IMG/VR virus record: IMGVR_UViG_2778261064_000024
Direction: 5' to 3' (one strand)
DNA from: a virus
Lineage: Duplodnaviria > Heunggongvirae > Uroviricota > Caudoviricetes
DNA length: 16,631 nucleotides
Shown in pieces: positions 9,001 through 12,000 of this stretch. A program made the position numbers. Numbering within the stretch: the stretch's first letter is position 1; each line of letters opens with the position of its first letter.

Positions 9001-12000
9001 GATGTAGATGTAAAACTTTTCGCCTTTGAAAATTTTTTGTCATCAGAAGGGCTTATGAACTCATCTTTTTTGTAGGGAACCGCTAATGCTGCATCACGTC
9101 TGCGAGGCAGCTTGCTTACTTCCTCGCGCTTTTTCATGATCAGTTATCCTTTAATAACCTATACAGTTTTGTAGGGGTACATCCTGAGGATATTGTTAAG
9201 TTCGTAGCACGCCTTTTCCGCCCATCATCGTATAAACGAAAACCAGTAGTAGACGAATTTTCTGCGTCAAAAACTATAGACAGTATAGCGTCCCCAGACT
9301 TTTTTTGCCATTCGCATGTGCCGTTAGTTGGTTTCGTCATCTGTAGACGCCAGTCAAGAACGCCATCACTTATAGCTGAGAGATCGTTTAGTACATCTAG
9401 TACGGATTGATATCTTTCATTTGGATCTACATGAATGCATTTGTTCACTATTGTTATTAATTTTTTATGTATATGGGGAGGATACTCTTTTAATGGATAG
9501 CAGCCATTAATTATCGACTCTCTGAGTTGTTCAATCGTGCTAAATGCAGATCTTTCTCTTTCAAAATTATCATGTCCAACACACATTCTATATATGGTTA
9601 ATCCTGCCTGATATATGTCATATGTGAAATTATAATCATTTGTTGATAAAGAAAAATATTCCGGTGGCACATGAAAATGATATCCAAACTCAGGCGCAGC
9701 TCTCGATTCCTCATTGACTAACTGAGATAATCCAAAGTCAGATAGCATGGCCTCATTTCTGTTTGATATCATAATGTTATTAGGTTTTATATCAAAATGC
9801 ATAAGACCTTTTGAGTGTATATGATAAAGTCCACTTAAAAATTGAATGGAATACCGTATTATCTCCCTGCTTGTAAGATTATTTTTTTTTCATTAATTGG
9901 TTTAGCGAACCATTATGATAAAATGGCATGGCTATATAGATATTGCTCTCACATTGAGCAGCATACTGAACTTGCACAATATTTGGATGTGCATGTTTAT
10001 AGAGAAGCCTTGCTTCATTAAAGTAGTCGTCGTGGTTAGTGTTTTCTTTTTTTTCTATTTCTTTAATCACCAAGTCATGAGCTAGGTGTCTGTCATGAGC
10101 CAGATATACTTTTGAAAAACAACCCTGTTCTTCTAGATCACTAATCCATTCGAATTCTACATCAGCTCTTTTGTATGGAGTTAGCATCCCCTTACCTCCG
10201 CAGATAGAGCAGCCAAAACAGCTTCATTTGTTTCAGTTGTAAAACCAGAATTATCGATTCCATTTATATTGCGGTGTGACTTCAATATTTCTTTATACTC
10301 GATCTCTGTTAGGTTCAATGATGATTTCATGCCAGATTTTCTAATAGTGTAATATTTTCTTACATCACTGCTTGAAAATGCTTCTTGAATAACAGCTTCT
10401 ATATAAAGGCGGTCAATGCTAAGATTATCAGAGTTTGATTCAGTAACGCGTATGGCAGCTAATTCAACATTATATAAATTAAGAATGTCGAGGATGTTAT
10501 TTCTCACATACTTTAATTTTTCTGGTGTGTCTAAGGTCGAAGGTATTTTAATAACATCAACACATTTGAGTGCAGACTCATTAGTGCAATATACAACAAA
10601 AGATGTAACTTTGGGCGCCGCTCTAACACCTAGTATTCTCATTTTTTATATCCTATTTTAGAATCAGGCCGCATCTCTGCGACCATCCATCATCCAAACG
10701 TCTCTTCACTCATCCGAAGAAGCAGCAATCCGGGTCAGCACGCACAAGCTCAAGCGCATCAGTCAGCGAAAGTTCAGTACTGTACTGATGCCATTTCATA
10801 TCCTTCCGCATCCAATAGATTTTCCATCTATCCAGAGAACGTATGTACTTGATTCTTGCTGATGGCAGGATGTTTGTTTCACCTGGGTTGCCCTGCCACA
10901 CGGGGCGCTGTTCGCCGATATCTATCGTTTGGTCATTGATGCTATAAACAATATCCAGTTCATTGCGGATATGTTCAGGCGGCCTTATGCTTTCAATGAA
11001 TTGGTGAACTTCTTTTTTGACCGCTTGATATTCAAGGTCAGTGAACGCCATCTATCCTCCTCACCCAAACGTTTCTTCTGGCCACTGGTTACCAGCTATG
11101 TGACGATGAAGTCACGAACTTTTCAGCCACTCCCTTGCCTCGATGTCATCCAGATGGCGAGATTGCTTCAGAATACCAGCTACATACTCCACCTTTGCTA
11201 CTTGATGATAAGGCAACGTTATAGGCCTGTGATCCTGGTTAATGCTTGTAAATTGGTATTCTCCATCTCTGTCATAGCCAAGAACCTTAATCATGTTGTG
11301 TCCTTCAACGGTTCTGACAAACACCTCATCACCCGGGAATACTTTGGTGTTAGGCTCAATGAGTACATATTCTCCTGATTTTATTCTGGGCCACATGCTG
11401 TCTCCTTTCACACGAAGGCCAAAGGCATCTGGATCATCGCTATAAATTTTGAGCCACCCATCGCGCTCTTCGGTCATCTCGATGGCACCATCAACACCAA
11501 GAATTGCCTCACCAACCACGCGCACTAACCCTTTTTTTAATTTGCCAACAAATGAAAGAGTATCTTCATCATTCGCTCCATTTAACGAAGTGCCGTGCTG
11601 AAGCCAAACAACATCAACGTTTAGAAATTTCGCAAGCGCATTCATTTTTTCCTGACGCGGTAAAGACTCAGCATTAAACCATTTGCTAACGCCTTTGGAC
11701 GAAAGAGAAAGGGCACGGGCTATAGCCATTCCCCTACCATGTTCATCAAGACCAGCTTCTTTACAGGCTTGCGCTAGCCGCTGGGCGAATTCTTTGCGCA
11801 CTTTTTCATTCTGAACCATGAGTACGATACTAAAGCACTTGCAAAAACTTTCAGTTCAATCATAATGCGTACTGAAAGTACGAAAAAGGATATCCCTATG
11901 CAAAATCTTGATGAGCCGATTAAAGGTGTCGGCATCCCTGAAGTTGCGAAGGCTTGTGGAGTTAGCGAAAGGGCTGTCTATAAGTGGCTCAAAAACGGCT

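Follow-up and report, generated by a model that had tools for sequence, protein, structure and literature searches.

The stretch of DNA considered here (the window) is the whole of IMG/VR virus record IMGVR_UViG_2778261064_000024, 16,631 nucleotides (nt) from a member of the Caudoviricetes, and it carries a protein kinase gene, stk, that is divided between two reading frames at a run of nine adenines (A9). The run occupies positions 9882-9890 (minus strand), where the wild type has eight adenines (A8), and it is the site of a frame-shifting insertion of one A. The minus strand reads CAA TTA ATG AAA AAA AAA TAA TCT TAC across the run. The 5' part of stk (9879-10187, minus strand) is an open reading frame (ORF) of 102 amino acids (aa) that encodes the N-lobe, with strands beta1-beta5, helix alphaC and the hinge, and it ends in LNQLMKKK and a stop codon. 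The 3' part (9140-9889, minus strand) is the C-lobe frame, which is open from 9889, translates from there as KKNNLTSREIIRYSIQFLSGLYHIHSKGLMHFDIKPNN... and reaches its stop at 9140. The first ATG-initiated ORF in this frame, 9140-9802 (minus strand), encodes 220 aa that include the HFDIKPNN catalytic loop, the DFG and PPE motifs and a C-terminal extension of roughly 90 aa. In the sequence, the C-lobe frame is closed directly upstream of the run by a TGA (9890-9892, minus strand) and the N-lobe frame by a TAA (9879-9881, minus strand); therefore, the two frames can be joined only inside the A run. These translations agree with a preliminary description of the window made without database searches, which had placed the LMKKK-stop end of the N-lobe ORF within the nine-A run and had the C-lobe frame open from 9889.

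Tract lengths from A6 to A11 were translated in silico. A8 gave a fused kinase of 348 aa and A11 one of 349 aa, and the A7 and A10 variants ran into short dead-end tails. The preliminary description was thus right that either A8 or A11 fuses the frames, and its estimate of about 330 aa for the product was too low. The Pfam Pkinase profile matched residues 21-260 of the fused protein (E 2e-46). On the separate fragments, profile positions 9-91 fell on the N-lobe fragment and positions 120-253 on the C-lobe fragment, and this division places the break in helix alphaD, at the boundary between the two lobes of this prophage kinase, as the preliminary description had stated. The kinase motifs VIK, E58, HFDIKPNN, DFG and PPE are complete and follow one another in order, as had also been said of the subdomains after fusion, but they are spread over two frames. 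A complete Hanks kinase domain in one polypeptide is absent from the window because the A9 run divides the frames.

Apart from one A, the window gene has the same nucleotides as the gene for Stk of phage 933W (NP_049482; Friedman et al. 2011, Mol Microbiol 82:567), with identity at 1047 of 1047 positions once that base is removed, and the two proteins are then identical. A 1151-nt region compared with phage records gave 39 matches at 99.7-99.8 % identity, all of them in 933W-like Shiga toxin (Stx) phages and each one base shorter; identity with 933W itself (NC_000924) was 99.8 %. The PHROG serine-threonine kinase family also matched (E 3e-142), as did two PADLOC kinase-defence models, PD-T4-6 (E 1e-37) and mad6 (E 7e-50). 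These matches identify the window gene as stk of 933W-type prophages, which encodes a eukaryote-like tyrosine kinase. The preliminary description had recognized a kinase and had missed that it is 933W stk, a studied abortive-infection kinase. In later articles that summarize Friedman et al. 2011 and Tyler et al. 2004 (PMC3681748; PMC3564112; PMC6356687), Stk is described as a eukaryote-like tyrosine kinase that shows little activity when cells are uninfected and is switched on by superinfecting phage HK97, whose infection is aborted. The same articles state that stk is co-transcribed with cI in the lysogen (PMC3564112) and that activated Stk kills the cell (PMC3681748).

The likeness to 933W extends over the operon order (cI, a DUF3024 gene, a RuvC-like gene, stk, orf54 and the terminator tM) and the immunity region. 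In contrast, stk of 933W is intact, whereas the window ORF is interrupted after codon 102; 933W has lambda O/P replication, whereas the window has a DnaC-like replication module and genes for RecE, Gam and RecT; and the window, unlike the Stx phage 933W, contains no stx genes. The remainder of the window belongs to a different lambdoid backbone that comprises an integrase, a RecE-like exonuclease, Gam, RecT, N and the DnaC-like replication module, so that by these comparisons the immunity module is the only 933W-type part. PD-T4-6 and other kinase-defence systems in PADLOC have the Hanks-type kinase domain in common with Stk; the PD-T4-6 and mad6 matches are confined to that domain, and Stk has its own C-terminal region as well as its RuvC-like and 54-aa partners. 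Lambda RexAB and other exclusion genes of PRM operons are likewise accessory abortive-infection genes that are co-transcribed with the repressor in the lysogen, and their proteins are unrelated to Stk; unstable homopolymers are not known to have been described in those genes, none of which was examined here.

An A9 run alone is evidence of nothing, given that about one per window is expected by chance: 1.18 were expected in 16.6 kb of the window's composition, and at least one occurred in 119 of 200 shuffles. What is non-random, to judge from the comparison with 933W, is that A9 lies precisely where the two frames meet, in a gene that matches an intact homologue at every other position.

Eight adenines is the wild-type state of the tract, and A9 is a minority allele found in about 1-2 % of copies. 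Tract length in relatives, which the preliminary description had proposed to compare, was A8 in all 39 phage records and in 28 of 29 IMG/VR contigs. The lone contig with A9 (L004) has the same sequence as window positions 1-12793, so it provides no independent evidence. Out of 225 complete Escherichia coli records, 3 had A9, 1 had A7, about 190 had A8 and 30 had a diverged stk allele; therefore, about 190 of the 195 records with the window's stk allele are A8. In a collection of 15 billion proteins, the full-length A8 product (348 aa) was found on at least 1000 contigs, the A9 product (102 aa) on 117 contigs from NCBI, ENA and Logan, the A10 product (109 aa) on 1 contig, and the A11 product (349 aa) on none. 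The A7 product (108 aa) was found on 82 contigs, which is an upper bound, as long-read artefacts inflate the contig counts and above all those for A7. The 220-aa C-lobe ORF was present on 199 contigs. Counted by index blocks, the A9 product occurred in 175, the C-lobe ORF (from A9 or A7) in 284 and the last gene of the operon in 12,514, which puts the share of A9 at about 1.4 % and that of all indels at the tract together at about 2.3 %. A scan of JGI metagenomes returned two matches, both A8, which are too few to inform. The preliminary description had considered a situation in which homologues never show the two ORFs fused; the homologues are overwhelmingly single fused ORFs with A8, and neither the two-ORF arrangement nor the shift site is conserved among them.

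The A9 state recurs in assemblies of separate origin. It is present in three complete RefSeq genomes, sequenced independently, from Korea (food), Korea (chicken) and Brazil (human), each of which PGAP marks as 'frameshifted', and the prophages of these three genomes form one common mlrA-integrated lineage. Nine further loci with the window's prophage architecture also have A9, with all neighbouring genes intact and 99.05-99.95 % identity over 11.7 kb; their sources are isolate assemblies and short-read metagenome contigs of the MEGAHIT/SPAdes style. One relative (L035) shows no single-nucleotide polymorphisms (SNPs) against the window in 8.1 kb and lacks a 778-bp duplication that the window carries, so it was assembled separately from the window; another (L042) differs by 6 SNPs and has A9. 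In addition, A9 is found on two immunity haplotypes that lie 13 SNPs apart in 2.2 kb, and the window haplotype is otherwise identical to that of A8 contigs L020 and L030, a pattern from which two independent origins of A9 are likely. Together, the recurrence in many assemblies and lineages supports a genuine frameshift allele of the pseudogene type, which was one of the options in the preliminary description, and we have good confidence that A9 is a genuine and inherited allele of 933W-type stk with one A inserted (A8 to A9).

The same description had also offered sequencing error, in which the source genome would have A8 and the extra A would be a homopolymer miscall or assembly error in this record. 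Homopolymers are classic miscall sites, and A8 contigs on the same immunity haplotype exist (L020, L025 and L030). However, A9 is present in the separately assembled near-identical prophages, in the three complete genomes and in the 175 index blocks, Illumina short-read metagenome assemblies among them. An error is therefore unlikely for the allele, and for this single record, judged from the assembly and not from reads, a miscall is very unlikely as well. Several points nevertheless weigh against a genuine allele of this origin and effect. The window record holds a suspicious, exact 778-bp tandem duplication, which is absent in all relatives and is possibly an artefact of assembly; an error in this record is therefore conceivable. 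Some database frameshift calls are clearly long-read artefacts, as in L050, where three shortened homopolymers and a split cI in the same operon are typical of long-read error. No SNP that distinguishes the haplotypes lies between 8941 and 10208, so a conversion patch of less than 1.3 kb could have carried a single A9 allele from one haplotype to the other. Finally, we infer the loss of Stk function in the A9 allele from its sequence.

As a genuine allele, A9 most likely arose when replication slippage lengthened the A8 run of an ancestral prophage by one A; from then on it would have been passed down and carried further along with the prophage, and also through recombination of the immunity module. 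Translation would stop after Lys102, so that the ATP-binding lobe would be kept and the catalytic loop, the DFG motif and the activation segment would be gone. Because such a product lacks these three elements, Stk-dependent exclusion of HK97-like phages is expected to be lost or greatly reduced, and A9 would be a null allele or a strong hypomorph for this trait. The premature stop may also lower the expression of orf54 through a polar effect. It is thus probable that lysogens with A9 no longer have the defence against HK97-like phages that Stk provides.

The run at the frame junction is not the only variable tract in stk. A second A8 tract, intact in the window sequence, lies at 10047-10054 (minus strand) and encodes part of IEKKEN in the loop between beta3 and alphaC. 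It was shortened to A7 in 6 of the 225 complete E. coli records and also in L014, L025 and L046; its A7 product was found on 103 contigs, again an upper bound, and its A9 product on 10. In the complete records, indels occurred in 4-5 of 225 at the first tract and in 6 of 225 at the second, so that one or the other run is disrupted in about 4 % of the stk copies in complete genomes. At the first tract, A7 occurs in three prophage contexts, namely an O157:H7 Stx prophage and, found through the shared 220-aa C-lobe ORF, a P22-like context with a different repressor and a 933W-like prophage. The diverged stk allele (24 differences, 2.3 %) has A6 at the site, TAAAAAAGATT, with the run followed by G (A6-G) and the reading LIKKINL, and one genome with this allele has A5 there and is marked 'frameshifted'. 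The gene has a GC content of 36 % and contains three of the window's five A/T runs of at least 7 nt. The presence of A7, A9 and A10 at the first tract and the recurrence of A7 and A9 at the second indicate that both A8 tracts of stk are indel hotspots.

A separate observation concerns PHROG 14833, whose profile length of 84 equals that of the 84-aa frameshift product of the second tract and which matches Stk residues 1-49. This family appears to have been built from that product, and it serves as a warning that fragments of frameshifted stk alleles have seeded database families.

Variable tracts raise the question of adaptive phase variation, in which replication slippage in the A8 tracts, acting as contingency switches, would at high frequency flip a costly abortive-infection kinase between OFF and ON. 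The databases hold A7, A8, A9 and A10 lengths, tract length toggles the frame in silico, and two tracts of one gene both vary. An A8 copy (L030) and an A9 copy (L039) are only 5 SNPs apart in 8.1 kb, and A8 copies (L025 and L030) are interleaved with A9 copies on a neighbour-joining tree of the flanks, where two changes of state are needed. As the activated kinase kills the cell, such a switch is conceivable. However, the OFF states are rare by the index-block shares, and among complete records the two states are not both common in the population (A9 in 3 and A7 in 1 of the 225). The tract is also not kept: neither the diverged allele, with A6-G, nor a 51 %-identical Tatumella kinase, with MQNEY at the site, gives a sign that selection upholds it across diverged alleles or orthologues. 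Out of 1431 informative SNP pairs in the flanks, 238 fail the four-gamete test, which reveals pervasive recombination; the flanks are mosaics produced by recombination, and the interleaving of A8 and A9 is therefore no proof of switching. The tree-based count of two changes was set aside as unreliable because of these incompatibilities. Moreover, runs of eight or nine adenines are short for a classical contingency tract in mismatch-repair-proficient E. coli, which counts against phase variation. A literature search found no publication on stk frameshifts, tract variation or phase variation. These comparisons fit a hotspot under mostly purifying selection with occasional loss rather than a selected switch. 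The stochastic or phase-variable expression proposed in the preliminary description is accordingly quite improbable, with OFF states at about 1-2 %, an unconserved tract, and interleaving that is confounded by recombination.

A run of this length may also be read through by other means. Bacterial RNA polymerase slips efficiently on nine A or T, mostly by additions, and produces mRNAs with up to 6 extra nt (PMC5009743; PMC1088944). Programmed recoding would use this property, or a +1 or -2 ribosomal frameshift on A AAA AAA AAA UAA, to set the ratio of truncated to full-length kinase. Efficient slippage starts at nine A or T, the stop codon adjoins the run, and precedents exist. Baranov, Hammer, Zhou, Gesteland and Atkins 2005 described as 'pseudo pseudogenes' exactly those frameshifts that extend A8 to a slippage-prone A9 (PMC1088944), and tssM1 of Citrobacter rodentium is rescued likewise by transcriptional frameshifting at an A11 run (PMC4256274). 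However, the split arrangement is a minority allele of 1-2 %, and most homologues are single ORFs with A8; as a rare variant, the arrangement is not a programmed feature of stk. Repair of the mRNA needs -1 or +2, not the commonest +1. In reporter assays, E. coli RNA polymerase is weak on poly(A), and deletion slippage was undetected at the poly(A) lengths tested (PMC6260861). Folding of the 93 nt downstream of the run was no more stable than that of shuffled sequences (z = -0.19), and the sequence upstream of the run contains no Shine-Dalgarno-like element. Programmed recoding is thus highly improbable. Its ribosomal form was rejected, as there is neither structure nor Shine-Dalgarno-like element, the direction (+1 or -2) is wrong, and the arrangement is unconserved.

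Unprogrammed slippage is a different matter. In the window, as in the 'pseudo pseudogenes', the A9 was made by the mutation itself, and slippage within the run restores the single ORF of the homologue. The lesion is of the same type as those described in PMC1088944, and there too some isolates have the allele and others lack it; those genes are restored by +1, whereas stk needs -1 or +2, and stk is absent from the supplementary lists of Baranov 2005. Citrobacter rodentium tssM1 (PMC4256274) and Shigella mxiE/spa (PMC5009743) are enterobacterial genes that, like stk, are interrupted at poly-A or poly-T with a stop just after. In them, the interrupted state is conserved and functional and both products are needed, whereas the interrupted stk is a rare variant and the gene is normally intact. 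Since slipping by bacterial RNA polymerase sets in at the length of A9, full-length Stk could be encoded by a small share of the transcripts (those with A11 or, less likely, A8); it is plausible that a small A11 fraction would yield Stk with one extra lysine, and weak rescue of A9 by polymerase slippage is possible. A more elaborate proposal is that the two A8 tracts are mutational switches for a suicide kinase and that A9 is a leaky 'pseudo-pseudogene' which, mainly through A11, would make a few per cent of full-length Stk. Taken as a whole, this proposal is unlikely on the sequences compared. If it were true, some HK97 exclusion would be kept at a lowered risk of self-killing, and this could allow the allele to persist and spread in a widespread non-Stx prophage lineage.

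The two ORFs might also be made separately, the 102-aa N-lobe and the 220-aa C-lobe products reassembling into an active enzyme. Gene callers predict both, and a weak AAGG stands 5 nt before the ATG at 9802. However, the ATG-initiated ORF begins at MHFDIKPNN and lacks residues 103-128, which form helices alphaD-alphaE and scaffold the catalytic loop, and the split state is confined to a minority allele, the protein being a single chain otherwise. Phage records, GTDB representative genomes and the Tatumella locus yielded no homologue in which a split is conserved. A functional split kinase was rejected on account of the absent helices and is scarcely credible. The scan of GTDB representative genomes returned only the Tatumella homologue and a 366-bp contig labelled Xanthomonas pisi. 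This contig (L048, NZ_JPLE01000313.1), from a draft assembly, encodes a protein 100 % identical to the C-terminus of the E. coli phage Stk and is probably contamination of that assembly.

The finding is an ordinary frameshifted allele of a characterized prophage defence gene, with no demonstrated genetic switch. The gene and the type of lesion were already known, and public annotation flags sister copies as frameshifted. Two points are modestly new: indels recur at both of the A8 runs, and A9 has persisted in a non-Stx prophage lineage that is widespread. For annotation, the two ORFs should be described as one frameshifted stk, which is the RefSeq practice for the sister copies, and not as two small kinase-like genes. 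The broken copies, at about 4 %, offer a small and clean example of homopolymers eroding accessory prophage defence genes. The allele would bear on the regulation of phage defence only if rescue at the transcript level or true switching were demonstrated.

The frameshifted stk lies in a PRM operon whose order in the window is the same as that annotated in NC_000924. The first gene (11112-11819, minus strand) encodes the cI repressor, as indicated by profile matches to a helix-turn-helix domain and an S24 peptidase and by synteny with 933W. It is followed by the DUF3024 gene (10710-11051, minus strand; Pfam DUF3024, E 2e-31), which also matches the PADLOC candidate defence family PDC-S43 (E 7e-42). 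The next gene (10181-10642, minus strand) encodes 153 aa, is called 'RuvC-like' by PHROG, has a stop that overlaps the start of stk and is a conserved partner of stk. The last gene of the operon is orf54, a 54-aa ORF (8973-9137, minus strand) assigned by synteny with 933W. A terminator-like hairpin with a T-run (8953-8974, minus strand) is the counterpart of tM, which is annotated at the same place in NC_000924.

The trio of the 153-aa RuvC-like gene, stk and the 54-aa ORF (window 8973-10642, minus strand) occurs as a cassette behind different E. coli prophage repressors, and the DUF3024 gene is present at some of these loci and absent at others. A trio is also found in Tatumella punctata (L047, 2047-3699), where the kinase is the 51 %-identical homologue, stop and start codons overlap, and a homologous ORF of 55 aa follows the kinase. 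The unit of defence may therefore be the three genes together and not Stk alone. In 12 window-like prophages, the 3.5-kb immunity region (8923-12423) contains zero SNPs, and the flanks differ by up to about 1 %; this suggests that recombination spread the immunity module recently. In the mlrA-integrated A9 prophages of the three complete genomes (L031-L033, positions 9953-10825 of those loci), only 69 nt remain of the N antiterminator gene, and the prophages are therefore probably defective; N is intact in a draft relative (L041).

Several repeats lie outside the immunity region. The 778-bp duplication is an exact (100 %) tandem repeat (12781-13558 and 13559-14336) inside a replication-initiator-like gene, and it creates an extra truncated ORF (12814-13599, 261 aa) before the full ORF of 362 aa (13592-14680). 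All relatives have a single copy of the unit, and the window-identical IMG/VR contig ends at 12793, just inside the first copy; the duplication may be a real recent event or an assembly artefact. The same gene contains an array of 5.5 copies of the hexamer GAACAG (13282-13314, with its duplicate at 14060-14092), whose copy number differs in frame among relatives and gives products of 358-364 aa. Upstream, at 12631-12780, two perfect direct repeats of 41 nt stand 90 nt apart and accompany a 16-nt tandem unit (12695-12726). These repeats lie inside a 72-aa ORF between cII and the replication gene, and they may be iteron-like or binding sites.

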